Positions 1 through 17,808 of a stretch of 44,188 nt of DNA are shown piece after piece. Position 1 is the stretch's first letter, and every line of letters starts with the position of its first letter. The stretch is taken from the IMG/VR virus record IMGVR_UViG_2541047701_000003; one strand, written 5' to 3'. The notes beneath the pieces were generated by a model. The model was not told where the DNA came from, did not search any database, and worked only from the letters and a program-made list of their open reading frames with translations. The position numbers and the translations under genes were made by a program. This DNA is from a virus (taxonomy: Duplodnaviria > Heunggongvirae > Uroviricota > Caudoviricetes).

Positions 1-342
1 ATGATGAGAAAAAGTATTCTGGCGTTTCTGTTACTCACCAGTTCTGCAGCTGCGCTGGCGGCACCGCAGGTGATTACCGTCAGCCGTTTTGAAGTGGGTA
101 AAGACAAATGGGCGTTTAATCGCGAAGAGGTGATGCTGACTTGCCGACCGGGTAATGCTTTGTATGTCATTAACCCAAGTACCCTCGTGCAGTATCCTTT
201 AAACGATATCGCACAAAAGGAAGTTGCCAGTGGGAAGACTAAAGCCCAACCCATTTCGGTGATTCAGATTGATGATCCTAACAATCCCGGCGAAAAAATG
301 AGTCTGGCACCGTTTATAGAGCGAGCTGAAAAACTCTGTTAA
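1..342 (+). CDS. yebY: YebY-like secreted protein (DUF2511-type), host gene flanking the prophage
   Basis: 113-aa ORF with N-terminal signal peptide ([23 protein letters not shown]); recalled as near-identical to E. coli YebY, the neighbour of pphA; recall-based. Confidence 0.6.
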
Positions 343-377
343 TTACCTAAAATAGCCTTTTGATTTCCAATAAAAAA

Positions 378-412
378 CCGCCTCAGTTCTTTCACCAGAA
401 CGGGCGGTTTTT
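378..412 (+). terminator. Rho-independent terminator downstream of yebY
   Basis: Interrupted hairpin CCGCC..GTTCT/AGAAC..GGCGG followed by TTTTT. Confidence 0.5.
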
Positions 413-499
413 AACATTTAAGCTGATGACCACCACGCTTTTTATTGACCATTTTGCACGCAAACTGGAAAACCTGGCGTCGTCATCTATTCTTAAAGA

Positions 500-602
500 G
501 CAAGGCAACTAAGCCTGCATTAATGCCAACTTTTAGCGCACGGCTCTCTCCCAAGAGCCATTTCCCTGGACCGAATACAGGAATCGTATTCGGTCTTTTT
601 TT
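500..602 (+). ncRNA. sdsR: SdsR (RyeB) Hfq-dependent small RNA, 3' end reconstituted by phage sequence; 5' end approximate
   Basis: Sequence ...gcctgcattaatgccaacttttagcgcacggctctctcccaagagccatttccctggaccgaatacaggaatcgtattcggtcttttttt matches my recollection of SdsR including its terminator hairpin CCGAATAC/GTATTCGG plus U-run. Confidence 0.6.
577..602. repeat. attL core (direct repeat shared with attR)
   Basis: acaggaatcgtattcggtcttttttt here versus acaggaatcgtgttcggtctcttttt at 43096..43121; adjacent to integrase gene. Confidence 0.6.
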
Positions 603-637
603 AATTGTATTTAAAATCAATTAGTTGCAACCGTCTC

Positions 638-666
638 CCCGAAATTACTCGAAATTTACTCGAATT
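638..666. promoter_or_regulatory. Candidate integrase arm-type binding sites (left arm)
   Basis: cccgaaatt followed by actcgaaat and actcgaatt between attL core and int; a similar cccgaaatt..actcgaaaa pair occurs at 42952..42980 near attR. Confidence 0.35.
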
Positions 667-733
667 TCTGTATTCCGGTCTTTTTTGGTTATATCACAAC
701 CAAAACACATTTAACAATCCATTTACGTTAAAA

Positions 734-1810
734 TCAGAGCAGTAAGTACGTTTTTTCTCTCTCATCAAGATACATTTTTGTTGTCTTCTCCGATGTGTGG
801 CCAAGTAGACGTTGAGCAAATTCTTCCCCACATGTTTCTTTGTACAATCGTCCAGCCAGGCTTCTGATCTCGTGAAAAGTTGGTGGGTTTTCACTGAACT
901 GGATACCTGTTAATTTTCTGGCTGCGACAAATTTCTTTGTCAGGCCGTCCGGGTGAATGCTGCCGTCAGGGCTGTTTTTTCTAATCCCGGCACTGATTAG
1001 ATAATCCCCCCTACTTACCATGCGGCACTGTTCAACTACTGCACCAAGTCGTAAACCAGCGACAGGAAGGCTGAGTGACAGGGGGATAGCAATCATCATT
1101 CCTGTCTTAATTTGCCTGATGTGGAGACGATCATCATAAATCTCACTGAACCGCATATTTGTTATGTCTTCGCGACGTTGTCCTGTTACAAGGGCTAAGT
1201 CCATAGCTAATGGGAACCATGTCGGAAGTTGATCTGCTGCCTCCCTGATGCAGTTGTATGTCTTTAGTTTCAGCCGTTCTCTTGTAACTACTATTTTCGG
1301 TGCTCTTGTTGGCGTTACTGGATTTTGAGATATACGTCCTTCAACAATGGCCTCGCGGAACATATCAGATAACACAGAACGCATTGATCCTGCCATCGTG
1401 TTTTTCCCTCCTTCAATCCACAAATCAAGAAACTCGGCAATATGGCGAGTGGTTATTTCTGTCAGTAAAACCCCTCCTAATTTTTCTTTTATTGTCTCCA
1501 GTTGATTTACCCGAATTTTATAAGTATTTCTGGACACTTTTCTCCTTATAAGAATCGTTTTGTAACGTTCAATCCAGTCTGCCATAGTAAATGAGTCGAA
1601 CCCTTTTAGTTTTTCAATTAAGGCAGCAGGAGAGTAGTTTTTGTATATATAATGATTTGCTTCAATTGCCTGCGCTACTGCATCTCTTCTTGAAATTTTA
1701 CCTAGTGTAAATTCTTCTTTCGTCAGAGGGTTGCGCCAGTAATATGCTTTGTCCCTCCTTCGATATGTTAAGTTTTTAGGCAAATTGGGATCGTATTTTT
1801 TCCGCTGCAT
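734..1810 (-). CDS. int: Tyrosine integrase, lambda Int family
   Basis: 358 aa; alignable by eye to lambda Int along its length ([29 protein letters not shown]-terminal catalytic motifs); adjacent to attL. Confidence 0.85.
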
Positions 1811-2057
1811 GTTTTAACTTCTCCAGTAACGGACTGTCTCTCCCTTGTCGCCCATTAGGCTGATGGTGTGTTATATCGGTATCAACCTTATTTGGGTTGA
1901 TATAGAAAGCTTCCGGAACCACCCTGTAACTCCTCCCGTGTAGTTCAGGTGCAGGATAAATGTTTCCATTCCTTGCCCATCGTCTCAGCGTTGATATTGA
2001 TGGTGGGTTATCCGGATATCTGAGTTTTCCCCACGTTTTGAGTGTCACAAGATTCAT
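1776..2057 (-). CDS. xis: Excisionase (Xis-like)
   Basis: Small basic protein immediately upstream of and overlapping int; start chosen at second ATG (MNLVTL...) which has AAGAGG at suitable spacing. Confidence 0.6.
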   Translation of the reverse strand: MNLVTLKTWGKLRYPDNPPSISTLRRWARNGNIYPAPELHGRSYRVVPEAFYINPNKVDTDITHHQPNGRQGRDSPLLEKLKHAAEKIRSQFA

Positions 2058-2163
2058 TGCCATACCTCTTACGATATGACCGCCAGTAAATATACAGAAT
2101 ACTGGCGGGTGTGGTTGATTTTTAATAATCAGCTATGAAGTTCTAATTTGTATATAATGCAAC

Positions 2164-2352
2164 TCACGAGGACAGAAGTTTCTCGCAATTAAAATTTATC
2201 AGCTTTACTTTCTGCTCTCTGGACACGCCTGCTTCTTTTTTCCCTGAGAGCATTTTTTCGCATTCTGATTTCGTTAATTTAGATTTTGAATATCTTGTCC
2301 AGTTAGTAGGAGTGCCACCTTCTTTTTCAATAGTGGCAGTTATTTTATACAT
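2164..2352 (-). CDS. Hypothetical small protein (position equivalent to Rac ydaC)
   Basis: 62 aa from ATG with GGAGG SD; overlaps stop of upstream Lar gene by 8 nt. Confidence 0.4.
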   Translation of the reverse strand: MYKITATIEKEGGTPTNWTRYSKSKLTKSECEKMLSGKKEAGVSREQKVKLINFNCEKLLSS

Positions 2353-2554
2353 GAACACCTCCATTATTATTTCCAGTAGTTCGTTTATTCCATCTTTCGA
2401 GTGCTTCTTTTTCACTTCCACCATAGCCAGTTCGGGATTCGCATCCGTTGCATTTTGCCCGGTAATATCCTGAAATGGCTTTCACCGTTACTGATGGACA
2501 ACCACAAAACGGACATGGTTTGACTTTTTCATACCGCATTGTCTTTTCTCTCAT
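2345..2554 (-). CDS. Lar-family restriction alleviation protein (zinc ribbon)
   Basis: 69 aa with CPFCG...C..C motif and WNKR, as remembered for Lar/RalR family. Confidence 0.6.
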   Translation of the reverse strand: MREKTMRYEKVKPCPFCGCPSVTVKAISGYYRAKCNGCESRTGYGGSEKEALERWNKRTTGNNNGGVHV

Positions 2555-2602
2555 AAAATAAAGTTTTGTTATGGCGGTGAGGCTACACCGCCATAGTAAA
2601 TA

Positions 2603-3655
2603 TCAGGAGCCGATATATTCTGGTTTCATATCTGTCAGTGTCGTTTTATACGCCTCATATAATTCTCCCAGATGTGGTCGTGCAGCATTCAGCGTATTTT
2701 CCAGAGCAATAAATTTTTGTTCTGCTTCTGGATCACCTGATGAAGGCAGGTCATTTATCATCTTCTCAATACGGGCAATAGCATTGAGACGGTGATGACG
2801 CTGAACCACTTTTCCTTTAAGTTCTGTGTAGAGAGCGCCAAGTGTATTTTTATGATCTTCCACTTCCTGGCGAAGTGCTGTTGTTTCTCCGGTGCTTTGT
2901 GCCTGCTCAATACGTTCACGGAAAGCACTGATCCAGTTTTCCCCGGCATCCTGCTCAATAATTGTTGTTTCACGTTCCGCACGGCAGGCGGATGTGTTTT
3001 TATGTTCCTGAACCGGATTAATGATTTTTTCCTGTGGTTCGTCCAGTTCGTCCCGGGTGTACACTCCAAGAATCACTTCAGGGCAATAAAGGCGCGCCCA
3101 GCGTTTCAGAGCCAGATAGGCAAGCTGCTGGCGAGGATCATCGGCCCATAACGTTGAGTTACGTGTTCTGGCCTGCGCCAGAAGTAACTCCAGTACGCGT
3201 GGCTTGCTCTCTCCGCGTAGTGTTGCCTGGACGCGAACACCGATCCCGTTTTCATCGGCCAGCTTCCAGCCAGGTACACGATATTCTTTCCCCTTGTCGT
3301 TCTTCCTGATTTCAAATTTCCCGATAATTTTTTCCCACGGCCCGAACCAGTCATATTCAATACGCCCGGTTAGCGGCCCACGAGTACTGATTACGGCATT
3401 AACCAGTTGCGCTTCATATCCGAGCACACCATTCACAACGAAAGTTTTCTGAGCTACTGCGTAAGGGTTCATTTGCCACTGCATCGCCTGCATGGTGATG
3501 GCCATGCAGTCTGATGGATTTCCCCGGAGGTGTTCCGGTACAGTAGCCATGCCGGAAGCCATTACCTGGGAAAATGTCTGAATTGCAGCCAGGGACTGAG
3601 GGCTGAAAACCGCAACATTAGAGTTAATATTTTCTTGTTGAGTTAATTCGTTCAT
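2603..3655 (-). CDS. Phage single-strand annealing recombinase (RecT/Red-beta-like)
   Basis: 350 aa directly downstream of recE; segment RQQLAYLALKRWARLYCPEVILGVYTRDELDE resembles the conserved Red-beta region; GGAAGGA SD. Confidence 0.6.
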   Translation of the reverse strand: MNELTQQENINSNVAVFSPQSLAAIQTFSQVMASGMATVPEHLRGNPSDCMAITMQAMQWQMNPYAVAQKTFVVNGVLGYEAQLVNAVISTRGPLTGRIEYDWFGPWEKIIGKFEIRKNDKGKEYRVPGWKLADENGIGVRVQATLRGESKPRVLELLLAQARTRNSTLWADDPRQQLAYLALKRWARLYCPEVILGVYTRDELDEPQEKIINPVQEHKNTSACRAERETTIIEQDAGENWISAFRERIEQAQSTGETTALRQEVEDHKNTLGALYTELKGKVVQRHHRLNAIARIEKMINDLPSSGDPEAEQKFIALENTLNAARPHLGELYEAYKTTLTDMKPEYIGS

Positions 3656-3666
3656 TGTGTCCTTCC

Positions 3667-6600
3667 TCAGATGCTCAGTGCTTCAAGACGACGAAGATCA
3701 AAGTCGTTTAATTCGTCGGTATAACTTTCGGTAATCGGTGCTGGCCAGTTGTTTGTCTCCAGAGCTTCGTTTATCTGTCGTAGTGTCCGGCGATATTCCT
3801 GTCGACCAAGTTCCAGGAGTTCCTGCGAGGCTTCCACGACGGCCACCCAGTGATAGCCAGCATCTTTGTTGACGAAGATCCAGAAAAATTTGTCCAGGTT
3901 TGCCACATCGCAATACATTGCTGCGCTGAGGTGATAATCACGTTCAATAATTTCACGGTGCAGGCGATCTTTCAGTCGTTCCTGTCGCACATAACCGAGG
4001 CTGACTGACTTCACGTCGGCGCAAATGCTTTCGTATGGCAGCCGGATTTCGATATCAGGACGGACCCTGATTTCCAGCCCGGTTTCTTCATCAAACCCGA
4101 AATAGCTGATTTCAGATTTGCGATCCGGGTGGTTGAGTAGCCTTGCTGCATCGGTATTGTTTTGCAGTGCCGCGTGAATATTTTTTGCCTGTTCATACAT
4201 ATCCGGACTGATAAACGTTTTCCCGGCGTTTTCTTCTTGCTGGCGTTTTTGCCAGTCCTCCAGCGTCACCAGTTCCGGGCGAATTTTCCGCGCGATTTCG
4301 GTTAATTGCTCTTTTGTGCCACTGATGTTGTAAGGCAAAGATTTAGCACGTTCTTTTTTTGCCAGTTCTGGGTCTACAGCTTCAATTTGATCCAGAAGCT
4401 GCTCCCGTGCTCCACTGGTTTTCAACAGAGGAGGGAGGCTTGCGTTGTATTCTTTAATACAGGCTTTCATTGCTGATGCTGTGTGTTTTTCCCCCTCAGG
4501 AATACGCCGAAATTCCACCGGAAGCGAACCGTAAAGGATGCCTGTTTCTTCGGCCCCAGCACTTATAGACAGTGGCTGTATAAGAGTGCTGTTGTAGCTT
4601 TCGATCCACTCTTTCATCTGCTCTGGTGTCATCAGTGCTGGCAGACTGGCATTGTGTTTTTTAATGATGGCGATCAGTTCGTTAGAAGTAGTAACCACAT
4701 ATTCAGGAACCGGTACCGGAATGGCATATTCATCAGCGAATTTATCCGTTTCCAGAACATAGCTGTGAATGATCCGCCCACGCAGCAGTGCATCACTTTC
4801 CTCGTTCGGAATAGTTCCGGCAATGTGCCGCCCGTGGTAATACATCAGGCTGATACGGGCATCCTTCAGCATCGTGCTGCTTATTCCGTTGGCGGAGTGA
4901 TAAACCTCGTTCGGGAGGTTTTCATAGCGGCCAGGCTCGAAATATGATGGCCACATGATTTCAGTTACTACAGGTGCTGTCGCTTCACCAGTTTCATCAC
5001 CGCAATCGCGATGCAGATCGCTGCCAGCATTCTCATTGTGCGGATGTTCAGGGCCTTCCATTTCCTCCGGCTCTTTTTCCTGAGATTCATCCAGATTTTC
5101 TTCATTAAAGGTTTCCTGATACGTTGCGTCGCCCATCACCGCGCCACAGTCAGGACAGTTGCCGCCGCCAGTCTGACCGCAGGCGGTGCAAACTTTCTCC
5201 GTTTCCTGTTGTTGCACTACTGGCTCAGGCTGTTTCGTTTCTGGCTCGTTTTGTTGCGTATTTGGGTCGTTCTGTTCCGTTTCTGGCTGATTCTGGTACA
5301 CAGAATCGCGGGTCTGGATCCCCTTAACCCATTTCGGATCATTCGGGTCGCTAATCCCTTCAACAAATTCTCCGCGAGAGGCAGCCAGTAATTTGTCTGC
5401 ATCGACAGGATTTTTGGGCGGAATGTTTTTCCGGGCTTCATAGAGTTCTGCCCGCAGTTTCTGATATTTCGCATCAACAGAATTTACCTGTGACTGAGCA
5501 TCCAGCGGCTGCGTGTCCTGATGATGTTCAGTTGCATCCGGTTCCACTGTTTCAGCCGTTGCCTGTTCATCTGCCATTGCGCAAGATGGTTGCAGTTTTT
5601 CTTCATCATCCTGTTTTTCTTCTTCTGTTACACGCTGCGGCATCGGGGCAGAGGAACGACCGCAGGCAATATCCACGATTTCTGGATCAGGGTTGGCATG
5701 ATCAGTTTCAGTCAGTACTTTGTTAAGATATTCAGTGACGTGTGCGGGGATAACCTCGATCCCAATTGGTGCTTCTTTTACGGACGCAACCACGATGGCG
5801 CGGGAATAATCCAGCCCGCCAGGCATGGTGATGAATTTGTCGCGGAAAACAGAAAAGGGCGGTTTATTTTCAGCGATAATTTCCTCGACACGTTTAGCGT
5901 GTGCCGGATGAAGGTTATAAATGTCCACGTCCATTGAACGAGCCAGTACGCCAGTCGCTACGTCGCGCGCCAGTGACGTCAGATCGTGAACGAAACCTTC
6001 GCCGCGATCGGTGAGGTTCCCGCCGCCAGCATTAGCGCCGGAAGCCGTGCGCGTGATGCATGAAACACGATTTCCTTTCATCCACTCTTTTGTCAGCAGA
6101 CCGCGATCGGTGTAGTCTGCGTCCAGGTATGCTTCGAAAAAAGCAGTCATCAGCCCCAGGCTTGAATTGCCTGGATTAGGGAAAACTCTGTCAGTATCAC
6201 GCACCAGTTTGTGGAGATCGCGAATTTCCAGCGGGTCGAGCAGGCTGGTTTTGTGGGAAACAGCCAGGGCAGTAACAGCTGGTAGTTCTTCAGCTCGTGC
6301 AATGTGTAATGCCTGTAGTTCGTCGCGTGAAACGTGCGTTACCGGTTTTTCGCTGCCGTGTTGAGCAAGCCAGCGAATGGGCAGCTCCTGACCGGAAATC
6401 GGGAGTAGCATATTCTCCTCAATCTCCGTCATGTCTTCGCCATTAACATTGGTATTGTCAGTGCTGGCTGGTTTGTCCTGCGCAGAGGATGAGGGCGTGA
6501 TAAATACCATTGTGATGCCATCTTCCCCGCCTTTTTCGTAACGGTTGCAGAATTCCGTATCAAATACGCCTTCTGGTGGAAGGTCATCAACAACGGGCAA

Positions 6601-6795
6601 ATTGACGCGAACAGGTTTTTTAAAGTCATCTTCATCGTAGCCAGCATCGTCAATCGCAACAGCACCACGGGAGATGGCAATGGATAATTTTTTCGCTTCA
6701 GCCCAGTAGAAACCGCCTTTAATACCGAGACGTTTTCTTACTTTGTCATTTTTTGCTTCGTAATACAGTGGGTAAACTTGTTTATCGGTGCTCAT
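3667..6795 (-). CDS. recE: Exodeoxyribonuclease VIII (RecE-like)
   Basis: 1042 aa; long stretches ([43 protein letters not shown]...) recalled as RecE of Rac; C-terminal nuclease domain. Confidence 0.7.
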
Positions 6796-6894
6796 TGTTT
6801 TTTAACCTCAACTCAGATTAAAATTAATGCGAGTGATGAATAAATGTCCCAGGTTCTTCACTCAGGCCTGCACAGTGTGCAGGCTTTCTTTTTT

Positions 6895-7170
6895 TCAGAT
6901 TTCACCTTTTAATTTCATTGCAATCAGAGTTGCCAGAAATTCGGCTTTTTTTTCTGCGGGCAGATTCTTTCCTATGTGCACCAGACACATTTTTTTAACA
7001 CCATCGTTAAGTGTTTTAACGTTGCCTGATGGACCGTCGATATCAACCACAGTGAATGGGGTTTCTTTATTTTCTGTCTTAATCACGTAGCCAATACGCT
7101 TTCCTTCCAGGGTAACTTCGTGAACAATGTCATCAGTAGTAACAACAGTGGCTTCATAACTGGTAATCAT
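6895..7170 (-). CDS. RacC-like hypothetical protein
   Basis: 91 aa from ATG with AAGGAGAAAAAC SD; size and position match racC of Rac. Confidence 0.45.
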   Translation of the reverse strand: MITSYEATVVTTDDIVHEVTLEGKRIGYVIKTENKETPFTVVDIDGPSGNVKTLNDGVKKMCLVHIGKNLPAEKKAEFLATLIAMKLKGEI

Positions 7171-7244
7171 GTTTTTCTCCTTAATTAAGGTTGAGCGAAT
7201 CCCTGCCATTGCTGGCATAAATTCAGTTTCGGATAGTCAGTTAA

Positions 7245-7415
7245 TTAAAGTTCGTGTGCCATCTGGTCTTTTTCGGCACAGATTTCACTACAATATTTTT
7301 TCATTTCCGTCGTTGGTATAACTCCACGCATGAAATGAAGTGGTCTTGTAATGATTTTGCTCTCTTCAATTTCTTTATTGCAAAGGTGATAAGCACATTT
7401 TATTTTCTTAGTCAT
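7245..7415 (-). CDS. YdaE-like small zinc-ribbon protein (not in supplied ORF track, below 60 aa)
   Basis: 56-aa [23 protein letters not shown]...CSEICAEKDQMAHEL with two CxxxC pairs; ATG overlaps the kilR stop (TAATG coupling). Confidence 0.5.
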   Translation of the reverse strand: MTKKIKCAYHLCNKEIEESKIITRPLHFMRGVIPTTEMKKYCSEICAEKDQMAHEL

Positions 7416-7636
7416 TACCATGACTCCGCCTTTACAGGTAAACCATCACGACCGAGGAAGACTCTAATCATGCAGTCAGAAATGCATGTTTTTGTAGTCA
7501 GGCTACGAATATAAAGTTTTCGCTTTTTAATATTGTTTGCCGAGGCGATATATGTCCGACCTTCATGAAGAACATAATCGCCAGGGGTCACACACTGACG
7601 TGGTATTTCATCAGTTCCGAAGTGATGAGCAATCAT
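7415..7636 (-). CDS. kilR: KilR-like FtsZ inhibitor (Rac kil)
   Basis: 73 aa from [44 protein letters not shown]..., recalled as near-identical to Rac KilR; GGAG SD before this ATG. Confidence 0.7.
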
Positions 7637-7988
7637 AATTATCTCCATTTTTACAAATGAATTTTGTCGATGCGGTGCCTGGTGCCTCCAGGTGACGTTA
7701 ACCAGTTAACAATTAACGCCGGATAATCCACCCATAACACTGATGCTTTTAACTGTGCCGCGTGCGCTTAGCCGCATTCACCGCATCACAAAATTCACTT
7801 TAAAAAGGGGCGGCAGGGCAGCCACGGAGTAGAACTGATGCCGCCAAAGACTACACATAGCAATGTCGTTATTTACAACCGGAGGCGCACTCCCACCATT
7901 TAAATTTAACAGACAAGACCGACTCTTTATGAATACCGGAAATGCGCCTTCGTGTTGTGCGCCTGTCTTTTTACCACTTCAGGCTCGG

Positions 7989-7997
7989 TGGTATACT
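7989..7997 (+). promoter_or_regulatory. Extended -10 promoter element (TGgTATACT) upstream of the 8032 gene
   Basis: TGGTATACT about 35 nt upstream of the ATG at 8032. Confidence 0.4.
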
Positions 7998-8031
7998 GGA
8001 GTTCTCACACAACCAGTAATAAGGTATTCCG

Positions 8032-8226
8032 ATGGATAATAAAGACAAAGCCTGGCTACTTGCTTTAGCTTTCAGCATCAGATCGCAGCGAGAAACAACT
8101 CATCAAGAATTTTTCTCGGAAATCGAGAATGCTGAGAATGAGTTTTTGTCACTACTCAATGAACGTGATGCTAAAAAAAGCGCCGATTCACTTAAGGCTT
8201 GGGCGAAACTAGGCTCTTCAAAATAA
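8032..8226 (+). CDS. Hypothetical small protein, opposite strand to the early-left operon
   Basis: 64-aa ORF with own promoter-like element; predicted helical/amphipathic. Confidence 0.4.
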   Translation: MDNKDKAWLLALAFSIRSQRETTHQEFFSEIENAENEFLSLLNERDAKKSADSLKAWAKLGSSK

Positions 8227-8410
8227 TTGCTTCTGTAGCGGCATGAACAACTGTTTTTGCCGCCTCTTCAACTTCCTTGTCTGGACGACCAGCCTTTACT
8301 TTTTCTGCAATGACATCCAGCACAGTTGGAAGAACCTTGCTAATAAGCATGGCTGCCACATCTTTGCTGCACAATTGACCGTTAATAACAACCAGATCTT
8401 CACCAACCAT
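8192..8410 (-). CDS. Hypothetical small protein
   Basis: 72 aa from ATG with AAGGGG SD (MVGEDLVVINGQLCSK...); 3' end overlaps the convergent 8032..8226 ORF by 35 nt. Confidence 0.45.
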   Translation of the reverse strand: MVGEDLVVINGQLCSKDVAAMLISKVLPTVLDVIAEKVKAGRPDKEVEEAAKTVVHAATEAIILKSLVSPKP

Positions 8411-8653
8411 CTTTTTTCCCCTTAACGCCGGGTGGCGGAACGTTTTATCTACTGCGCTTTGTATCAATCAACAACTGCCGTCATGTTCGTATGCCTCAGG
8501 CTGGCTACTTAGCCCTGTTCAGTGGCTGGATAACTCGAGGTATTGTCCTGCCGTTCTCTGGTGGGGCGTTGTTTGGATATGCTTATTAAACACAATGCGT
8601 TTTCTTATGTCAACACGAAATGTGTTTTATGGTGAGTGTCATATGATGATGGT

Positions 8654-8679
8654 ACAAAAAAGCCCGCTGATAGCGGGCT
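8654..8679 (-). terminator. Rho-independent terminator after the repressor gene
   Basis: On minus strand AGCCCGC-tatca-GCGGGCT followed by TTTTTT. Confidence 0.5.
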
Positions 8680-8709
8680 GATTGGCATATTACTGTGATA
8701 GCAAGATCA

Positions 8710-9129
8710 TTACTCCGGTGGGGGATTATCTTTAAGCCTGCCTCTCAAATATTTTTCTACATACTCATCGATTTCTTTTAGCCGGACTTCAAATAGCTCA
8801 ATCATTCGTTGTTGTTCTGAGCCCGGTAGCTGGTTAAACAACTCAAGAAGTTTTCGTTGGGATTCATTTAACCACAATTCAGAAGATTCCTGTTCTCCAA
8901 ATAGGAGCTCAGGAGGAGATATGCCAAGTGCCTTTCCCAATACGACAGCGTCATGCACTCCAACATTTCTGCTGCCCGCCTCATAGTTACCTATACGCGA
9001 TTGCGTCCATCCGCAGATTTCAGCAAGTTTTCCTTGAGATAAACCAAGCTTCTGCCTGCGCTCTTTAAGACGCATTGCAATTTTGTCATTGAGCCTACTA
9101 GCGGCAATTTTTTCGTTTTCTTTTTCCAT
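8710..9129 (-). CDS. Prophage repressor, XRE-family HTH (cI/RacR-like)
   Basis: 139 aa; HTH LGLSQGKLAEICGWTQSRIGNYEAG; divergent from Cro-like gene across an operator-containing intergenic region. Confidence 0.7.
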   Translation of the reverse strand: MEKENEKIAASRLNDKIAMRLKERRQKLGLSQGKLAEICGWTQSRIGNYEAGSRNVGVHDAVVLGKALGISPPELLFGEQESSELWLNESQRKLLELFNQLPGSEQQRMIELFEVRLKEIDEYVEKYLRGRLKDNPPPE

Positions 9130-9140
9130 TGCATCCTTGT

Positions 9141-9155
9141 ATCACGAATCGTGAT
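9141..9155. promoter_or_regulatory. Candidate operator palindrome in the divergent promoter region
   Basis: ATCACGA-A-TCGTGAT perfect palindrome; second palindrome ACACA-agg-TGTGT at 9188..9200; TTGACC -35-like at 9177..9182. Confidence 0.45.
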
Positions 9156-9225
9156 TTATATAAAACACAAAACAGCTTGACCATATAACACAAGGTGTGT
9201 TTAAAATTGTCATCGGAGGTTTTCA

Positions 9226-9468
9226 ATGAACAAAATTTCAACATATCGAAAACAGCTTGGGCTGTCTCAAAGACAACTTGCTGTTCAGTTAGGGTGGATA
9301 CAAAGCCGACTGGCAAATTACGAAGCAAATTTTCGTACCCCTGGACTAGAGGAGTGCAGAAAAATTGTTTCTACCCTTAATCGGCTTGGCGCTCATTGTG
9401 GACTTGACGATGTATTCCCCCCAGACGGTAAGCATAGCGAAAACAGCATAGGAGCGGTTGATTCATGA
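9226..9468 (+). CDS. Cro-like HTH regulator (YdaS-like)
   Basis: 80 aa; HTH LGLSQRQLAVQLGWIQSRLANYEA; GGAGG SD; first gene rightward of operator region. Confidence 0.6.
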   Translation: MNKISTYRKQLGLSQRQLAVQLGWIQSRLANYEANFRTPGLEECRKIVSTLNRLGAHCGLDDVFPPDGKHSENSIGAVDS

Positions 9469-9887
9469 AAATCAGGCATGAGCACATCGAATCAGTGTTG
9501 TTAGCCCTGGCAGCCGAAAAAGGGCAGGCGTGGGTCGCTAACGCAATTACTGAAGAATATCTGCGCCAGGGGGGCGGCGAATTGCCCCTTGTACCAGGCA
9601 AGGACTGGAACAATCAGCAGAATATCTATCACCGTTGGTTGAAAGGTGAAACGAAAGCGCAAAGGGAAAAAATTCAGAAACTGATCCCTGCGGTTCTGGC
9701 AATTCTTCCGCGCGAGCTGCGTCACCGACTCTGCATCTTCGATACCCTGGAACGCCGTGCATTACTGGCGGCGCAGGAAGCGTTGAGTACGGCAATTGAT
9801 GCGCATGATGATGCAGTCCAGGCCGTTTACCGGAAAGCACATTTCAGCGGTGGTGGGTCGCCCGGCGATTCTGTCGTAGTGCATTGA
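9465..9887 (+). CDS. YdaT-like protein (early regulator/toxin family of Rac)
   Basis: 140 aa, ATGA-coupled to Cro-like gene; size and position match ydaT of Rac. Confidence 0.5.
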   Translation: MKIRHEHIESVLLALAAEKGQAWVANAITEEYLRQGGGELPLVPGKDWNNQQNIYHRWLKGETKAQREKIQKLIPAVLAILPRELRHRLCIFDTLERRALLAAQEALSTAIDAHDDAVQAVYRKAHFSGGGSPGDSVVVH

Positions 9888-9932
9888 TTGAAATTAATCG
9901 TGCCGGATTGTTTTGTTCGGTATCAGTTAAAT

Positions 9933-10350
9933 GTAACGCTGCGAGCGTTACAAGGTGAAAACAAATGGCTTCAAACTGGATAAAGCTCGAGGTTATTACG
10001 CCGGATAAGCCGGAAATATTCAGGCTTGCTGAGATTCTGAATATTGATCCAGATGCCGCATTAGGGAAGGTTATTCGCTTCTGGGCATGGGCGGATCAAC
10101 AAATGATAGACGGTAATGCAGATTGTAACGCTCGCGGCGTTACAAAAAGTGCAATAGATCGCATCACTTTTATGGCTGGTTTTGCTGATGCGTTAATTCA
10201 GGTTGGATGGCTGGTCGAAAATGACGGTGGGCTTTCTCTACCTAACTTTGAACGTCATAACGGGAAAAGCTCTAAAAAACGGGCGGTTACAAACGAGCGA
10301 GTTACAAAAATACGCGAACTGAAACGAAAAGGTAACGCTGCCAGCGTTAC
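9933..10350. repeat. Iteron-like palindromes, probable origin of replication within and upstream of the initiator gene
   Basis: GTAACGCT-n3-AGCGTTAC at 9933..9951, 10125..10143, 10332..10350 plus GTTACAAA direct repeats at 10286 and 10301. Confidence 0.45.
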
Positions 10351-11095
10351 ACAAACGGATCAAAAAGCGTTACCAGAGGAAGAGGAAGAGGAAGATATAA
10401 ATACTGATCTAACCCATCCCAAACCCTTCCCTTCCGGAAGGGAGTTCCGGGATTTTGTGGCTGGAGTGCTTGAGGGGAGATTATCTGGCGGTACTGCAGC
10501 GGAATTTTGTAATTCTGCGGTGGTTGCGTTGCAGGCTGCTGGCCTGGATGTCTGTCGTGAGTATCCGGTGCCAGAGCGTGGTGACGGCTGCGGAGGGCGG
10601 ATTGATATCGTCGTGACTGACAGGAACGGTGTCCGGTGTGGGATCGAGCTTGACCGAAATTCTCCGCGACAGAAATCACTGCTCAAAATCAGTGCTGTTG
10701 AAACCGGGATATGTGTCTTGCGGCGCAGTGATATCGCAAGGCACACCGAGCAGGGAATTCTGGTTATCGGTGGGGCTGTTCGCCAGAAAAAATTTGACCC
10801 GTTGTCTGTTGATCTGCCCGACTGGTTGCCAGAAACACTCTGGCATGAGTGGGTTCAGTTCAGGCAGGCATTGCGAAAACCGATTCGAACGGAGCAGGGC
10901 GCTAACGGGGCGATACGGGAGCTGGAAAAATTCCGCCAGCAGGGTTTTACCCCTGAGCAGGTGATTAGACACAGCATCGCCAATGAATACCAGGGCTTGT
11001 TCGCGCCGAAAGGCGTTCGGCCTGAGACGTTACTCCGACAGGTTAACACCGTCTCGTTTCCAGACAGTGCTATCCCGCCAGGCTTCAGGGGGTAA
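9965..11095 (+). CDS. Phage replication initiator (lambda O-like role)
   Basis: 376 aa; contains iterons in its 5' part, acidic EEEEEED linker, followed by DnaC-like loader. Confidence 0.6.
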   Translation: MASNWIKLEVITPDKPEIFRLAEILNIDPDAALGKVIRFWAWADQQMIDGNADCNARGVTKSAIDRITFMAGFADALIQVGWLVENDGGLSLPNFERHNGKSSKKRAVTNERVTKIRELKRKGNAASVTQTDQKALPEEEEEEDINTDLTHPKPFPSGREFRDFVAGVLEGRLSGGTAAEFCNSAVVALQAAGLDVCREYPVPERGDGCGGRIDIVVTDRNGVRCGIELDRNSPRQKSLLKISAVETGICVLRRSDIARHTEQGILVIGGAVRQKKFDPLSVDLPDWLPETLWHEWVQFRQALRKPIRTEQGANGAIRELEKFRQQGFTPEQVIRHSIANEYQGLFAPKGVRPETLLRQVNTVSFPDSAIPPGFRG

Positions 11096-11101
11096 CAGAC
11101 C

Positions 11102-11848
11102 ATGAAAAATATTGCGACAGGAGGCGTTCTGGAGCGTATCCGCAGACTGGCCCCACCACATGTAACCGCCCCATTCAGAACGGTTGCGGAGTGGCGCGAG
11201 TGGCAACTTGCTGAAGGCCAGAAACGTAGCGAGGAGATCAACCGCCTGAATCGTCAGTTGCGGGTGGAAAAAATTCTGAATCGCTCAGGCATCCAGCCGT
11301 TGCACCGTAAATGCTCGTTTGCGAATTACCAGGTGCAGAACGACGGCCAGCGATACGCGTTAAGCCAGGCGAAATCCATCGCCGATGAACTGATGACCGG
11401 GTGTACAAATTTTGCGTTCAGCGGAAAACCTGGTACCGGGAAGAATCACTTAGCGGCAGCTATCGGGAATCGCCTGCTGAAAGACGGTCAGACAGTGATT
11501 GTGGTTACCGTGGCTGATGTTATGAGCGCCCTGCACGCCAGCTATGACGACGGGCAGTCAGGCGAAAAATTTTTGCGGGAGCTGTGCGAAGTGGATCTGC
11601 TGGTTCTTGATGAAATTGGCATTCAGCGCGAGACGAAAAACGAGCAGGTGGTGCTGCATCAGATTGTTGATCGCCGGACAGCGTCGATGCGCAGCGTGGG
11701 GATGCTGACAAACCTGAACTATGAGGCCATGAAAACATTGCTCGGCGAGCGGATTATGGATCGCATGACCATGAACGGCGGGCGATGGGTGAATTTTAAC
11801 TGGGAGAGCTGGCGTCCGAATGTTGGTCAGCCAGGAATTGCGAAGTAA
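11102..11848 (+). CDS. DnaC/IstB-like AAA+ helicase loader
   Basis: 248 aa; Walker [16 protein letters not shown] and Walker B LLVLDEIG. Confidence 0.75.
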
Positions 11849-11870
11849 TTTTTACCGGGAGGAAATTTTA

Positions 11871-12632
11871 ATGGAGACTGTTTTTGACGCCCTGAAAGCA
11901 ATGGGAAAAGCCACATCCATAGAACTTGCTGCGCGACTTGATATCAGTCGTGAAGAAGTGCTGAGCGAACTATGGGAACTGAAAAAGGCTGGTTTTGTTG
12001 ATAAAAGCGCGTACACCTGGCGTGTGGCTGATAACAACGTTCAGCAGGAACAGCCAGCGCAGGCAGAACAGCCGGAAGAAACTACCACGGCAACAGTAGC
12101 GAAAATCTCAGAGTGCGATTTAACCGCGACGATTGAACAACGCGGACCACAAACGGCGGATGAGCTGGCTGCGTTGTTCGGTACCACATCACGCAAAGTA
12201 GCTTCAACGCTGGCAATGGCAATCAGCAAGGGGCGTCTGATTCGCGTAAGTCAGAACGGTAAATTTCGTTACTGCATACCGGGCGATAATTTACCAGCAG
12301 AGCCGAAAGCTGCATCGGTAACGGAAACTGATGGTAAGGCCTTTCCTCAGCCCGCAGGTGTTGCGTTACCAGTACAGGAAGCGGCAACACAGGAAGATAT
12401 TAAAACAGAAACTGTGGCGGACATTGTGCAGTCGTTGCCATCGTTTACTGAAATGCAAGCGGATGACCTGATTTTACCATCACTGCATATGGCAAACCGC
12501 GAGCTGCGCCGGGCAAAAGGTCAGGTTCAGAAGTGGGAGCGAGTCTGCGCCGCGCTGCGGGAGCTGAATAAACACCGGGATATTTTCAGTTCGATTGCTG
12601 ATATTCCGGTTCATTCACCGACAACAAAGTGA
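11871..12632 (+). CDS. Hypothetical protein with two winged-helix-like segments
   Basis: 253 aa from ATG with GGGAGG SD (METVFDAL...). Confidence 0.5.
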
Positions 12633-12647
12633 TCTCCGGAGGTGCTT

Positions 12648-13070
12648 ATGACAAGAGCATTTACACCAGAAGAGCGGGAAAAAATTAAGGGGCTGATCGT
12701 GGAATTCGTACGCCTTAACGGACGAGGCACGATTCGGCAGTTATCGGATGAAATTGGTGTCAGTCATGCGTCTGTCGGTCGTTTATGCATGGAGCTGGCC
12801 GCCAGTGGTGATGTTTACAATTCCGGTTACGGAGTATTCCCGTCTGAGCAGGCGCGCAAGGACTGGCAAAACGCCCGCAAAAAACTCTCAAGGGCAAAGC
12901 TGAAGAAACCATCTGTGGTTGATCCGGACCTTATCTGGCTATTACCAGACGGCGAAATACGCCGCTACGACAGGCGCCTAAACATAATCTGTCGCGAGTG
13001 CCGGAAGAGTGAAGCTATGCAGCGTGTACTGGCTTTCTATCAGGGTAATTTTCAGGAGACGGTACTGTGA
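12648..13070 (+). CDS. Hypothetical protein
   Basis: 140 aa from ATG with GGAGG SD (MTRAFTPEE...). Confidence 0.5.
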   Translation: MTRAFTPEEREKIKGLIVEFVRLNGRGTIRQLSDEIGVSHASVGRLCMELAASGDVYNSGYGVFPSEQARKDWQNARKKLSRAKLKKPSVVDPDLIWLLPDGEIRRYDRRLNIICRECRKSEAMQRVLAFYQGNFQETVL

Positions 13071-13127
13071 GTGAAATTAGCTATCAGGCTTCAATTACCG
13101 CTGGCATTCGCATCAAAGGAGAGGAGC

Positions 13128-13484
13128 ATGGAAATAAAACCAGAGGATGAGTTAAGCAATATCGTTTTATTTCCGGTAAAAGAGGATGACCCTCGTAATC
13201 AGGTTAATTTTCTTTATGAGCCATCGGAAAGACCATATTGTCATCACGCCTCTGTCCGGGTTGACGAAAAAGAGCGTCAGGTCCGCTGTAAAATCTGCGG
13301 TGCAGTTGTGGAGCCATTTGACTGGATGCTCTCTGTGGCGAAAAGAGAAACTAGGCTGGCAGATGATGTAAAGCTATTGCGCCAGGAGGAACAGGAAAGG
13401 CGGAAAAATATAGAAAAGTTAATTCAGATTGAGCGTAACGCGAAAGCGCGGATACGCAGGGTGACAAAATCCAGAACTGAATAA
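13128..13484 (+). CDS. Hypothetical zinc-ribbon protein
   Basis: 118 aa from ATG with AAAGGAGAGGAG SD; CHH...CKIC motif. Confidence 0.45.
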   Translation: MEIKPEDELSNIVLFPVKEDDPRNQVNFLYEPSERPYCHHASVRVDEKERQVRCKICGAVVEPFDWMLSVAKRETRLADDVKLLRQEEQERRKNIEKLIQIERNAKARIRRVTKSRTE

Positions 13485-13579
13485 TTAAATTTAGCACTGT
13501 AAATAAAATCAAATCCTTAACCGGAGGGATTTCTGCACCCTCAGAACATCAGGAGGCCGTCCGAAAGGGCGGTAGTGAA

Positions 13580-13762
13580 ATGCGAAAACTCAAAATAATT
13601 ATTGAAACGGGAATAGCCGGTGGAGATTTCGAGGATGAATTCGAAGTGGATGATGATGCAACACCAGATGAAATACAGGATGAAGCTAAAGATATTTTCT
13701 TTAACTACTGCAATTACTCATACCACGAAATAAAAGACGAAGAGGAAGAACAAAATGGCTGA
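13580..13762 (+). CDS. Hypothetical acidic small protein
   Basis: 60-aa ORF, very acidic; weak RBS. Confidence 0.3.
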   Translation: MRKLKIIIETGIAGGDFEDEFEVDDDATPDEIQDEAKDIFFNYCNYSYHEIKDEEEEQNG

Positions 13763-13931
13763 TTTTGGTTCAACTAAATATAACGCCAGTTTTGAAGAAT
13801 GGCATGAACTGTTAATGGATTATGCAGAGTTACGCGGTGGAAGTGCCGCTGATGCTGAAGCATGGCGTGATGATTATGAAGCAGGGAAAACACCGGTCGA
13901 AGCATATTGTGATGAGTGGGGCGATGAATGA
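13755..13931 (+). CDS. Hypothetical small protein (not in ORF track)
   Basis: 58-aa ORF MADFGSTKYNASFEEWHELL...; start overlaps previous stop and its stop overlaps the next ATG. Confidence 0.35.
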   Translation: MADFGSTKYNASFEEWHELLMDYAELRGGSAADAEAWRDDYEAGKTPVEAYCDEWGDE

Positions 13932-14287
13932 GCGAGATTAATTATCAGGAAGGGCATGAAAAGGCAGGGCAGGCAAAACCAGTGGCATGGCGATATCGCT
14001 ACGTGAAAAAAGGCGTTACAGACTTTCAGGGGAAGCAGTGGGTTGGTGACTGGAAATATGTCCCGACAAAAGAGGATTGTAACGACAGACCAAACTATGA
14101 AATTCAGGCGTTATTCACGGCCCCGCCAGCTTCGGTGACATCAGAAGGACTGGTTAAAGCTGTGCGCTTTTATGAACAGGTACGGCGTGAGGATCCGCCA
14201 GTTGAAACCGGAGCATGGAAAGACGCTATTGACTGGGTGCTCAAAGAGGCTTGCCTGGCTGTAAATATAGGCATCAAAGGAGGGTGA
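13928..14287 (+). CDS. Hypothetical protein
   Basis: 119-aa ORF, translationally coupled. Confidence 0.5.
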   Translation: MSEINYQEGHEKAGQAKPVAWRYRYVKKGVTDFQGKQWVGDWKYVPTKEDCNDRPNYEIQALFTAPPASVTSEGLVKAVRFYEQVRREDPPVETGAWKDAIDWVLKEACLAVNIGIKGG

Positions 14288-14288
14288 T

Positions 14289-14576
14289 ATGGCAACTTTG
14301 CAGGAATTAATCGACCTGACGCCAGAACAGGAAAAAGCGTGGAATCGCCTTGTAAAGGCTGTAAAGGATTTCAGGGCAGCCGGAGGAAAGTTTTATAGCG
14401 TCCTGGACACGCTGAGCGCATACAACGGCGAGCACGTTGCCAGCATTGATAACGATAAGGGCTACCACACTGCAAGCGTCTATATGCCTAGCATTGATGC
14501 GCCAGGGCTAACCAGTTGGGCTGATGATTGGCACGGCATCACGCTGAAAGATGGGGTTGAAGTGGATGAGGACTAA
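14289..14576 (+). CDS. Hypothetical protein
   Basis: 95-aa ORF with GGAGGG SD. Confidence 0.5.
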   Translation: MATLQELIDLTPEQEKAWNRLVKAVKDFRAAGGKFYSVLDTLSAYNGEHVASIDNDKGYHTASVYMPSIDAPGLTSWADDWHGITLKDGVEVDED

Positions 14577-14579
14577 CAC

Positions 14580-14750
14580 ATGACTACTTTTACCGACAAA
14601 GAACTGATTAAAGAAATCAAAGAGCGCATAGGCAGCCTGGACGTCCGAGACAATATTGAGCGTCGGGCTTATGAAATTGCGCTGGCATCGCTGGAAGCAG
14701 AGCCGGTTGTGTTCTGGTTTGAAAAATATCAAGAAGGGGCTACGGCATGA
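14580..14750 (+). CDS. Hypothetical small protein, paralog of N-terminus of next gene (not in ORF track)
   Basis: 56-aa [21 protein letters not shown]...[10 protein letters not shown]; ATGA-coupled to next gene. Confidence 0.4.
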
Positions 14751-15091
14751 CGACTTTTACCAGAGAGCAGTTAATAGCTCACGCAGAGGAGACTATTGAA
14801 GCACAGAGACTGTGCATACCGGGCACAATCGACCATGACATCATCCGCACATATAAGATGGATATTGCTGTTCTGGAAATCGCACTGGTATCGCTGGCAG
14901 CAGAGCCAGCCGGTAAATTGCATGAATACAAACCAGTGGGATATCAGCGTCTGGTCGATGAGTTAACCATGCTGGTAAAGCAGTTAACCTGGCAACTGAG
15001 GAAAGCGAAGCCAGACTGCAAATTACCGGATAAGGCGATGAGTTATCTGGAGCGGAACGGACTGATAAGCGTGGAGGATATTTTACGATGA
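14747..15091 (+). CDS. Hypothetical protein
   Basis: 114-aa [18 protein letters not shown]...[10 protein letters not shown]. Confidence 0.5.
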
Positions 15092-15171
15092 CCTGGCCTG
15101 AAGCATTAACAACGGTAGGAATTGCGATGGCGGTGACGCTGATGGTGTATTCGATTTGCCGCTGGGGATAA
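15088..15171 (+). CDS. Possible small hydrophobic membrane peptide (27 aa)
   Basis: [27 protein letters not shown]; GGAGGA SD; ATGA overlap with upstream stop. Confidence 0.25.
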
Positions 15172-15325
15172 AAACGGTTTGCGGGAAAAGGAGAGTTAAG
15201 TAGAATTGCTGCGGGTGCTTGAGGCTATCTGTCTCAGGCATGAACACCAAAAGGCAGATAGAGAAAAGCCCCAGTTAACATTACGCGTCCTGCAAGACGC
15301 TTAACATTAATCTGAGGCCCAATCT

Positions 15326-15538
15326 ATGTCTCACAAATGTAGGTTAGCCTCTTACGTGCCGAAAGGCAAGGAGAAGCAGGCTATGAAGCAGCAAAAGGCG
15401 ATGTTAATCGCCCTGATCGTCATCTGTTTAACCGTCATAGTGACGGCACTGGTAACGAGGAAAGACCTCTGCGAGGTACGAATCCGAACCGGCCAGACGG
15501 AGGTCGCTGTCTTCACAGCTTACGAACCTGAGGAGTAA
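15326..15538 (+). CDS. mok: Mok-like reading frame (N-terminal extension of hok)
   Basis: 70-aa ORF in frame with hok, as in chromosomal mok/hok loci. Confidence 0.45.
   Translation: MSHKCRLASYVPKGKEKQAMKQQKAMLIALIVICLTVIVTALVTRKDLCEVRIRTGQTEVAVFTAYEPEE
15383..15538 (+). CDS. hok: Hok/Gef-family type I toxin
   Basis: 51 aa MKQQKAMLIALIVICLTVIVTALVTRKDLCEVRIRTGQTEVAVFTAYEPEE, typical Hok sequence; 5'/3' fold-back complementarity in flanking RNA. Confidence 0.75.
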   Translation: MKQQKAMLIALIVICLTVIVTALVTRKDLCEVRIRTGQTEVAVFTAYEPEE

Positions 15539-15608
15539 GAGACCAGGCGGGGGAGAAATCCCTCGCCACCTCTGATGTGTCAGGCATCCTCAACGCACCC
15601 GCACTTAA

Positions 15609-15628
15609 CCCGCTTCGGCGGGTTTTTT
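15609..15628 (+). terminator. Rho-independent terminator of hok mRNA
   Basis: CCCGC-ttcg-GCGGG followed by TTTTTT. Confidence 0.6.
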
Positions 15629-15813
15629 GTTGCGCGCTGAATACGCAGGGTGAAAAATAACCATATATTTGATTATATACACAACAAAAAATAAAAGTCA
15701 TTGTATCTGCACATTAAATAATCAAATATACGGCGTGAAATAAATATTTTTCAGATTAATATTTTTGTCTCTATGTGGATATAACCGTTTGTACTTATAA
15801 ACTCGGAGGCATC

Positions 15814-16026
15814 GTGGAAAAAATAAAGAAACTATTTAGTTGCAAATACGCAGTCATACGTCGTGATGACCTGTCAGTTATAGTCGAAATGGATTACTTC
15901 CCTGAAACCCCAAAATCAATGATGTATCGTAATGGTCGAAAGGCAATTTTTTTACCGATGAGGTTAAGTGACATTATGGGAAATGATAAACTGCTGGATG
16001 AATTGCGAGTCAGAGCATCCTGTTAG
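15814..16026 (+). CDS. Hypothetical protein downstream of an AT-rich promoter region
   Basis: 70 aa from GTG with GGAGG SD; start uncertain (ORF track begins at 15775). Confidence 0.35.
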   Translation: MEKIKKLFSCKYAVIRRDDLSVIVEMDYFPETPKSMMYRNGRKAIFLPMRLSDIMGNDKLLDELRVRASC

Positions 16027-16097
16027 TATTGGCATTAATTCTGGTATACTACATAACGGGCTGAACACCCATTCTACTGCGCCAGCGGAGAACTACG

Positions 16098-16697
16098 ATG
16101 GCGCATATACAACTGGTCAAACAAACCTCTTCCGGATTACTTCTCCCGGCGACGCCGGAGAGTTGCGATTTTTTGCATCAAATCAAAATAGGTGAGTGGA
16201 TACACGCAGACTTTAAGCGTGTGCGTAACTACGCATTCCACAAGCGTTTTTTCAAACTCCTGCAACTGGGATTCGATTACTGGACTCCGGTCGGTGGGGC
16301 GATCACGCCTCGCGAACGAAAACTGGTATCAGGCTTCGTTGATTACCTGTGCGAATCAGTAGGTCGGGAACACACTCCAGCCCTGAGTGATGCCGCAGAG
16401 CAATACCTTAATACAGTTGCGACATGCAGAACCCGGGATACGGCATTGCTAAAGTCGTTTGACGCTTTCCGCGAGTGGGTAACCATTCAGGCCGGATTTT
16501 ACACCGAGCATATTTATCCTGATGGTAGTCGTGGGCGCAGGGCAAAATCTATCGCATTTGCGAACATGGACGAAACCGAGTTTCAGCAGGTTTATAAATC
16601 TGTACTGAATGTGCTGTGGAACTGGATCCTGTTCCGTAAATTTTCCTCTCCGGAGGAAGTCGAAAATGTGGCCGCGCAGTTACTGGAGTTTGCGTAA
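16098..16697 (+). CDS. DUF1367-like protein (YbcN-like, nin region)
   Basis: 199 aa; size and synteny with following YbcO-like and Q-like genes as in DLP12-type late control regions; recall-based. Confidence 0.5.
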   Translation: MAHIQLVKQTSSGLLLPATPESCDFLHQIKIGEWIHADFKRVRNYAFHKRFFKLLQLGFDYWTPVGGAITPRERKLVSGFVDYLCESVGREHTPALSDAAEQYLNTVATCRTRDTALLKSFDAFREWVTIQAGFYTEHIYPDGSRGRRAKSIAFANMDETEFQQVYKSVLNVLWNWILFRKFSSPEEVENVAAQLLEFA

Positions 16698-16987
16698 TGG
16701 TGGATTTACGTAAAGCGGCGCGGGGGCAGATGTGCACCGTCAGAATTCCTGGCTACTGCAATCACAATCCCGAAACTTCTGTGCTGGCGCATTACAGGCT
16801 GGCGGGGACGTGCGGAACAGCGACAAAACCACACGATATGCAGGCAGCGATTGCCTGTAGCTCATGCCACGATTTAATCGACGGGCGGGTAAAAACCAGC
16901 GATTACACCAAAGAAGAATTACGCCTGATGCATGCAGAAGGTGTTTTTCGCACACAAGAAATCTGGAGAAAGGAAGGTTATTTATGA
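16697..16987 (+). CDS. DUF1364-like protein (YbcO-like, putative nuclease, Cys-rich)
   Basis: 96 aa with C..C / C..C..H motifs; ATG overlaps previous stop. Confidence 0.5.
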   Translation: MVDLRKAARGQMCTVRIPGYCNHNPETSVLAHYRLAGTCGTATKPHDMQAAIACSSCHDLIDGRVKTSDYTKEELRLMHAEGVFRTQEIWRKEGYL

Positions 16988-17538: not shown

Positions 17539-17564
17539 CTCAATCTGTTATCCGGGGCTATATT
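17535..17564 (+). promoter_or_regulatory. Candidate late promoter pR'
   Basis: TTGACT (17535..17540) - 18 nt - TATATT (17559..17564) directly after Q stop. Confidence 0.4.
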
Positions 17565-17625
17565 CCTCACGCGCCAGCAAAATCTGGCGTCGGGATTGGC
17601 GTCCTGGATAGAGACCGCGACAGAT

Positions 17626-17648
17626 ACACGCCGCGAGCGTGTTTTTTA
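17626..17648 (+). terminator. Candidate tR' terminator
   Basis: ACACGC-cgcga-GCGTGT followed by TTTTTTATT about 60 nt downstream of the -10. Confidence 0.5.
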
Positions 17649-17808
17649 TTGTCGTATGCACGCGCACATCTGAATTATGGTGGGCTGTGTGGGGGCGGAG
17701 AGATCCGCGCCGGTCGGTTTCCCGGTTACGCCAACCCCGCACAGTTCACCACCAGACGATTGGCGTCGTCGGTGGTGAGTTATTAAGAAACCACCAGAGG
17801 GCGTCATT

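Follow-up and report, generated by a model that had tools for sequence, protein, structure and literature searches.

A reverse-facing terminator at the racC-recE junction of Rac-type prophages marks the end of a probable unannotated antisense RNA

The stretch of DNA analysed here (the window, 44,188 nucleotides; IMG/VR record IMGVR_UViG_2541047701_000003) matches, at 100% identity, a prophage inserted beside yebY/copD in E. coli FDAARGOS_1289. Its minus strand carries, in order, int-xis-ralR-recT-recE-racC-ydaE-kil, with gene names taken from the 100% identical RefSeq record, and the 91-aa protein encoded upstream of recE shares 96% identity with one named RacC. Between the start codon of recE and the racC-like stop codon lies a gap of 99 nt, which contains a hairpin followed by a T-run on the plus strand. 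The junction comprises the following features.

3667–6795, minus strand: recE (1042 aa), directly downstream of the terminator site on this strand.
6793–6809, minus strand: translation start region of recE, with GAGG at 6809–6806 and ATG at 6795–6793; a predicted antisense promoter lies inside.
6864–6886, plus strand: terminator stem-loop AGGCCTGCA(C)-AGT-(G)TGCAGGCTT, 9–10 pairs (scan, fold, covariation, K-12 homolog).
6885–6895, plus strand: T-run TTTCTTTTTTT, with the RNA 3′ end expected at ~6891–6894 from K-12 homology.
6895–7170, minus strand: racC-like gene (91 aa), its stop codon TGA (6897–6895) touching the T-run.

The same arrangement is found in E. coli K-12, where recE (1414786–1417386) and racC (1417488–1417763) also lie on the minus strand. 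RecE has 1042 aa in the window and 866 aa in K-12, and the first ~300 nt of the window gene show a ~82% match to the 5′ ends of Qin/dicB-type '3′-5′ exonuclease' genes. One leader, together with the first three codons, is common to three unrelated recE 5′ coding sequences, which places a mosaic junction right at the recE start codon.

Positions 6866–6895 read GCCTGCA (6866–6872), CAGTG (6873–6877), TGCAGGC (6878–6884) and then TTTCTTTTTTT (6885–6895), exactly as a first-pass annotation of this DNA had described. The overlap it noted between the T-run and the minus-strand stop codon is also there and amounts to one base, the T at 6895 that complements the A of TGA. A G+C-rich RNA hairpin with a U-rich tract directly 3′ of it on the same strand is the anatomy of a Rho-independent terminator, and the stem at 6864–6886 (10 pairs, 6 of them G-C, loop of 3) ranked first of 18 in a terminator scan of positions 1–15000; a match in this generic scan means little by itself, since shuffled sequence is expected to yield 16.8 such sites. 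When the requirements were set to 7 or more perfect pairs, 5 or more G-C pairs, a loop of 3–7 and 9 or more T among the 11 positions that follow, the hairpin became the sole site on either strand of the 44-kb window and none of 200 dinucleotide shuffles produced any, a result that gives an upper bound on significance because these values were chosen after the site had been seen. The hairpin has a predicted free energy of −15.5 kcal/mol (z = −3.4).

Several other identities for the element were considered. What follows the hairpin on the minus strand is CUGAGUGAAGAACC and not a U-tract, which rules out a bidirectional terminator, and a REP-like dispersed repeat is ruled out by copy number, the palindrome occurring once in the window and at a median of one place per genome. 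An Rfam search returned nothing at this site at the gathering threshold; the best permissive match, OmrA-B (21 bits, where the threshold is 40; E = 0.08), reflects terminator resemblance. We also dismissed a small plus-strand ORF (6827–7090) as a gene, since it passes through the terminator and its start codon is absent in the K-12 type of the module.

To follow the element across genomes we assembled three sets of loci: exact matches to the recE leader (n = 135), loci anchored on the RacC protein (n = 80, together with the most divergent family members), and 327 captures, with some contigs repeated, anchored inside a second hairpin just upstream, an anchor that presupposes neither the leader nor the terminator. 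Hairpin and T-run are kept in 135/135 leader-anchored loci, in all 80 RacC-anchored loci and in 325/327 captures; the two exceptions are an indel-ridden read-level assembly (L215) and an unrelated chance 19-mer match. The module comes in two types, a K-12 type with the stem GCCTGCG/CGCAGGC and the tail ATTTCTTTC, and a window type with the stem GCCTGCA/TGCAGGC and the tail TTTCTTTTTTT; a T-rich tail is found in all variants, with run lengths of 6 to 8. Among complete E. coli genomes, 1,594/5,426 carry the K-12 type and 268/5,426 the window type, about a third overall, and in none of them is the site annotated as an RNA. Some genomes hold both types in separate prophages of one chromosome, as in NZ_AP018808.1 (E. 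coli E2865).

Within this conserved frame the loop varies freely (CCATA, TATGG, TCATA, GCATA, CAGTG, CGTTG, CACTG, CACAG, CGTTA, CGTCG, CTGAG and CTCTG) and the stem stays paired. In an alignment of 38 distinct variants all 304 stem cells form standard pairs, a level reached by 0/500 shuffles and compared with 14–45% in slid controls, and RNAalifold returns the same helix, extended to 9 pairs. Two pairs show changes on both sides, AU/GC next to the loop and AU/UA at the base, in a shallow phylogeny with about three lineages contributing the covariation. RacC homologs occur only in prophages of Escherichia and Shigella, and a search for distant relatives that might deepen the covariation found the same module in the most divergent RacC members. 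Separately, some terminator loops (6873–6877 and homologous positions) occur as exact reverse complements between isolates, CAGTG/CACTG and CCATA/TATGG; this is inversion of the loop within the palindrome, with the stem untouched.

Such inversions are typical of palindromes, and one could suppose that the element is only a functionless palindrome at a mosaic module junction, or a dispersed REP-like repeat, an idea to which three unrelated recE 5′ sequences on one leader would also lend themselves. We consider this very unlikely: the palindrome is single-copy in the window and sits at a median of one place per genome, compensatory changes preserve its stem while the loops drift, and in K-12 an RNA 3′ end has been measured there in vivo.

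The stem variants also bear on which strand is read as RNA. Read on the plus strand, all one-sided changes replace C by T or A by G, namely GCCTGTG in the K type, GCCTGTA in the window type, GCCTGCG..TGCAGGC in a third lineage and the outer G·U of the whole window type. In 27/27 one-sided cells the result is a G·U pair in the plus-strand RNA and an A·C mismatch in the minus-strand RNA, and changes of the converse kind were absent; as these cells reduce to about 3–4 independent events (p about 0.06–0.13), the asymmetry is suggestive and not conclusive. The upstream hairpin was left out of this argument, since the prediction of its inner stem is weak and one variant of the K type (GAATAATC) would point to the other strand.

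These observations have to be set against the proposal that the hairpins act instead on the minus-strand racC-recE mRNA, in its processing, its stability or the translation of recE, with the T-run and the plus-strand 3′ end being incidental. The minus-strand intergenic RNA does fold well (−30.1 kcal/mol, z = −3.4), Watson-Crick covariation is identical on both strands, and the element stands 55 nt upstream of the recE Shine-Dalgarno sequence. On that strand, however, the one-sided changes give A·C and the outer pair of the window type is mismatched, the hairpin is followed by CUGAGUGAAG rather than a U-tract, a conserved A-run 5′ of a hairpin is not known to have any role, and the plus strand shows a strong 3′ end while the operon is repressed. 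As the explanation of the element we find an mRNA role improbable; as a second function alongside termination it is not mutually exclusive with the plus-strand role.

Direct evidence for a plus-strand RNA end comes from K-12, whose homologous hairpin, AGCCTGCG-CCATA-CGCAGGCT, lies at 1417460–1417480 and is followed by ATTTCTTTC. The first-pass annotation had named the mapping of plus-strand 3′ ends at the T-run as its decisive experiment, and Term-seq of MG1655 reports just such an end at 1417486(+), given no class other than 'antisense' to racC (Adams et al. 2021, PMC7815308, Supplementary file 1). This end belongs to the K-12-type module, from which the window type differs in loop, tail and upstream hairpin. 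It lies 6 nt past the stem, inside the U-tract, a position typical of intrinsic termination, and it agrees with the strand indicated by the one-sided changes.

The signal is also strong. Average reads at 1417486(+) are 185,664 in the LB OD 0.4 sheet and 146,140 in a later sheet, and the coordinate appears three times in a file with three condition sheets (PMC7815308). Read counts were compared within the plus strand only, because minus-strand values are apparently on a different scale; among the first ~75 rows a single plus-strand end, that of a tRNA, exceeds it, with sokC at 66,698, sgrS at 6,222 and most mRNA ends at 1,000–20,000 (PMC7815308). The 3′ end table lists no further end on either strand between 1411575 and 1417486, RalA has no 3′ end in the LB OD 0.4 sheet, Supplementary file 2 contains no Rho-termination region near the site, which speaks only indirectly for termination without Rho, and the main text never mentions the site (PMC7815308).

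Taken with the hairpin and U-tract, the K-12 end makes it very probable that the element works as a plus-strand intrinsic terminator within a minus-strand operon, in agreement with the first-pass annotation. It shares with E. coli Rho-independent terminators a G+C-rich stem of 9–10 pairs, a short loop, an immediate U-tract and, in K-12, a 3′ end 6 nt into that tract, with no structural difference; what sets it apart is that it faces against its own operon, with no annotated gene to terminate.

The role first suggested for this terminator, insulation of recET from antisense read-through, for example from a plus-strand promoter at 7989, does not withstand the coordinates. Plus-strand polymerase moves towards higher coordinates, so that only RNAs starting below 6864 can be stopped here, and plus-strand transcripts arriving at the terminator have already crossed recT and recE, which it cannot insulate. 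The promoter in question (7970–7997) lies 1.1 kb downstream and fires rightward into the ORF at 8032–8226. Apart from the element being a plus-strand terminator within the operon, nothing speaks for the insulation model, which the coordinates and strand of that promoter contradict, and we regard it as virtually untenable. It is the racC-ydaE-kil-DicF side that the terminator shields from antisense transcription. As an observation in its own right, the promoter at 7970–7997 (TTTACC-16-TATACT with an upstream TG) is a good one and drives a 64-aa hypothetical ORF (8032–8226, plus strand), which occupies the position of sieB in K-12 Rac.

Because the K-12 3′ end is so abundant and isolated, it suggests a promoter nearby. 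The stretch of 33 nt that begins at the recE start codon and stops just short of the divergent region (CATTGTTTTTTAACCTCAACTCAGATTAAAATT) holds a plus-strand TTGTTT-N18-TAAAAT, a promoter-like site 35 nt upstream of the hairpin, and the corresponding predicted features of the window are listed here.

6795–6800, plus strand: predicted −35 element TTGTTT, overlapping the recE start codon by one base (position-weight scan).
6819–6824, plus strand: predicted −10 element TAAAAT, after an 18-nt spacer, with a predicted start near 6831 (position-weight scan).
6831–6863, plus strand: predicted upstream stem-loop GAGUGA.GAAU...GUUC.UCACUC, which abuts the terminator and would form the body of the predicted RNA (fold).
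6831–6893, plus strand: predicted cis-antisense RNA of about 61–65 nt, with two hairpins and a U tail (fold; 3′ end supported by K-12 Term-seq, 5′ end predicted).

In the position-weight scan the candidate scores 9.0 bits, at the 99.994th percentile of window positions, and exceeds what the promoter regions of RalA and SdsR reach at best. Within the 650 nt upstream of the K-12 terminator no candidate ranks higher, and no other high scorer is common to different recE backgrounds. A stricter consensus scan omitted it, since its −35 element has only 3/6 consensus bases (the TTG). The TAAAAT is invariant in 325/325 genuine captures anchored elsewhere, the TTG is lost in 1/325, and the T-run of the spacer varies by one base in either direction among these captures. 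In Qin-type prophages a related exonuclease gene sits behind ydfD; its leader is a different one that has no TAAAAT, and the hairpin and T-run are absent there too, so that at these junctions, as at the others, TAAAAT leader and terminator either both occur or are both missing. That the leader does not vary might just as well be due to signals for recE translation or to a recombination linker. No 5′ end at this site is listed in the supplements of SMRT-Cappable-seq and Cappable-seq.

With a start assumed 7–8 nt past the −10 element, the predicted window RNA (6831 to about 6892) folds at −26.8 kcal/mol (z = −5.15), and its K-12 counterpart would be ~64 nt long (about 1417423–1417486) with two adjacent hairpins (z = −4.1). 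The K-12-type upstream hairpin differs in sequence and forms an analogous stem (CAGUG/CACUG); structural support for this predicted upstream stem-loop is weaker than for the terminator. By position the RNA would be complementary to the 3′ end of racC and the 5′ leader of recE. The K-12 tail, AUUUCU, is poorly suited as a 3′ end for Hfq. No racC/recE entry appears in the RIL-seq-based candidate tables of Bar et al. 2021, on which ground an Hfq-dependent trans-acting sRNA was set aside.

These observations lead us to favour, as the probable though by no means certain explanation, that the terminator ends a short (~65-nt) cis-antisense RNA arising from the predicted promoter in the recE start region. 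A predicted sigma-70 promoter, TTGTTT-N18-TAAAAT (6795–6824), inside the recE ribosome-binding and start-codon region, would point backwards and give rise to an RNA starting near 6831, antisense to the racC-recE junction. The terminator would confine antisense transcription to the intergenic region and halt polymerase before a head-on entry into the early-left operon (racC, ydaE, kil, DicF), and its hairpin would supply a 3′ end that stabilises the RNA.

A simpler account has no dedicated RNA at all: the terminator would be a barrier to long or spurious plus-strand transcripts from recE and recT or from RalA read-through, and the mapped end a protected remnant of these. The geometry permits this, terminator hairpins protect decay fragments, and other promoter-like sites of about 6–9 bits lie upstream (6743 and 6388 in the window; 1417013, 1417145 and 1417210 in K-12). 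These upstream candidates, though, differ between recE backgrounds, whereas the terminator is common to them; the reads are about 3 times those of sokC, with no other 3′ end for 6 kb upstream; no Rho-termination region is called in the area; and wherever one of leader promoter and terminator is absent, so is the other. We therefore judge a pure barrier to be unlikely, if still a credible account of the site.

If the terminator does end a promoter-borne antisense RNA, recE might be affected in two ways: by duplex-directed cleavage of the racC-recE mRNA, or by polymerase collision, or antisense-promoter activity, against the early-left transcript at the recE start. Direct translational repression appears unlikely, since an RNA starting at 6831 would not cover the Shine-Dalgarno sequence at 6809–6806, and cleavage or transcription interference fits the anatomy better than occlusion of the ribosome site. 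Extending this further, to the idea that Rac-type prophages, that of K-12 included, carry a constitutive gene for a ~65-nt antisense RNA, and that the RNA or its transcription helps to silence recET in the lysogen, is a speculation that we hold only tentatively and consider rather doubtful.

Among known systems the predicted RNA most resembles, by its geometry, P22 sar and lambda OOP. The sar RNA (immI) is likewise an antisense RNA at a two-gene unit of a lambdoid phage and controls the downstream gene ant; it is reportedly about 69 nt long, with a promoter at the start of ant that points back across the arc-ant intercistronic region, and this geometry is the one predicted at racC-recE. The sar RNA covers the ant ribosome-binding site, whereas the predicted RNA would begin 22 nt upstream of the Shine-Dalgarno sequence of recE and leave it uncovered, and the sequences are unrelated. 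Lambda OOP is also a short (77 nt) cis-encoded antisense RNA in a lambdoid phage operon, as would be the predicted RNA here, and induces RNase III cleavage and decay of the cII mRNA (PMC5415839); unlike the present element in a leftward recombination operon, it lies in a rightward operon, at the 3′ end of cII, and the two have no sequence similarity, with no Rfam match at the element.

GadY is cis-encoded and complementary to the gadX-gadW intergenic region of a polycistronic mRNA, where it directs cleavage (PMC5415839), and the RNA predicted here would be complementary to such an intergenic region too. GadY is, however, chromosomal, Hfq-associated and stress-regulated, whereas the predicted RNA is prophage-borne and not in the Hfq RIL-seq candidate lists. 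The same prophage carries RalA, an antitoxin sRNA encoded on the plus strand within the left arm of Rac, whose genes are on the minus strand; RalA differs in having an Rfam family and a known toxin partner, ralR; the element described here is without family, name or known partner.

The element itself is an ordinary intrinsic terminator, and its interest lies in what it delimits: the end of an abundant unnamed RNA that, in the best-studied of bacterial genomes, lies immediately before recET, on which one of the standard recombineering systems is based. That 3′ end was already present, unremarked, in a published supplementary table (PMC7815308), and the RefSeq K-12 annotation names RalA and KilS nearby but no RNA at this site. 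Should the RNA have its own promoter, it would add one more lysogen-expressed antisense RNA to the lambdoid set of OOP, sar and RalA, and might contribute to the silence of recET in wild-type cells beside repression by RacR. Should it have none, the site would exemplify a prophage operon with a reverse-facing terminator that contains antisense transcription.

The surroundings hold further RNA features. The window carries a DicF homolog at 7808–7859 on the minus strand, upstream of kil, matched over its full length by Rfam at 60.9 bits, and K-12 Rac has an annotated small RNA, KilS (1418405–1418502, minus strand), in the corresponding region upstream of kil. Rfam matches elsewhere in the window (462–606, 2168–2346, 15213–15388 and 17558–17756) are to SdsR/RyeA, RalA, sok, IsrK and C4 antisense RNA; the SdsR/RyeA match is at the prophage border, RalA (2168–2346) is a plus-strand small RNA in the minus-strand left arm of Rac, sok adjoins hokD, and the C4 antisense RNA is accompanied by its a1/b1 targets. 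In the K-12 Term-seq table, Rac also shows strong minus-strand 3′ ends at 1419679 ('orphan') and at 1420148 (internal to racR). Lastly, a strong terminator-like site on the minus strand of the window (8661–8679, AGCCCGCTATCAGCGGGCT followed by TTTTTG) lies just downstream of an HTH repressor-like gene (8710–9129) and looks like an ordinary gene-end terminator.
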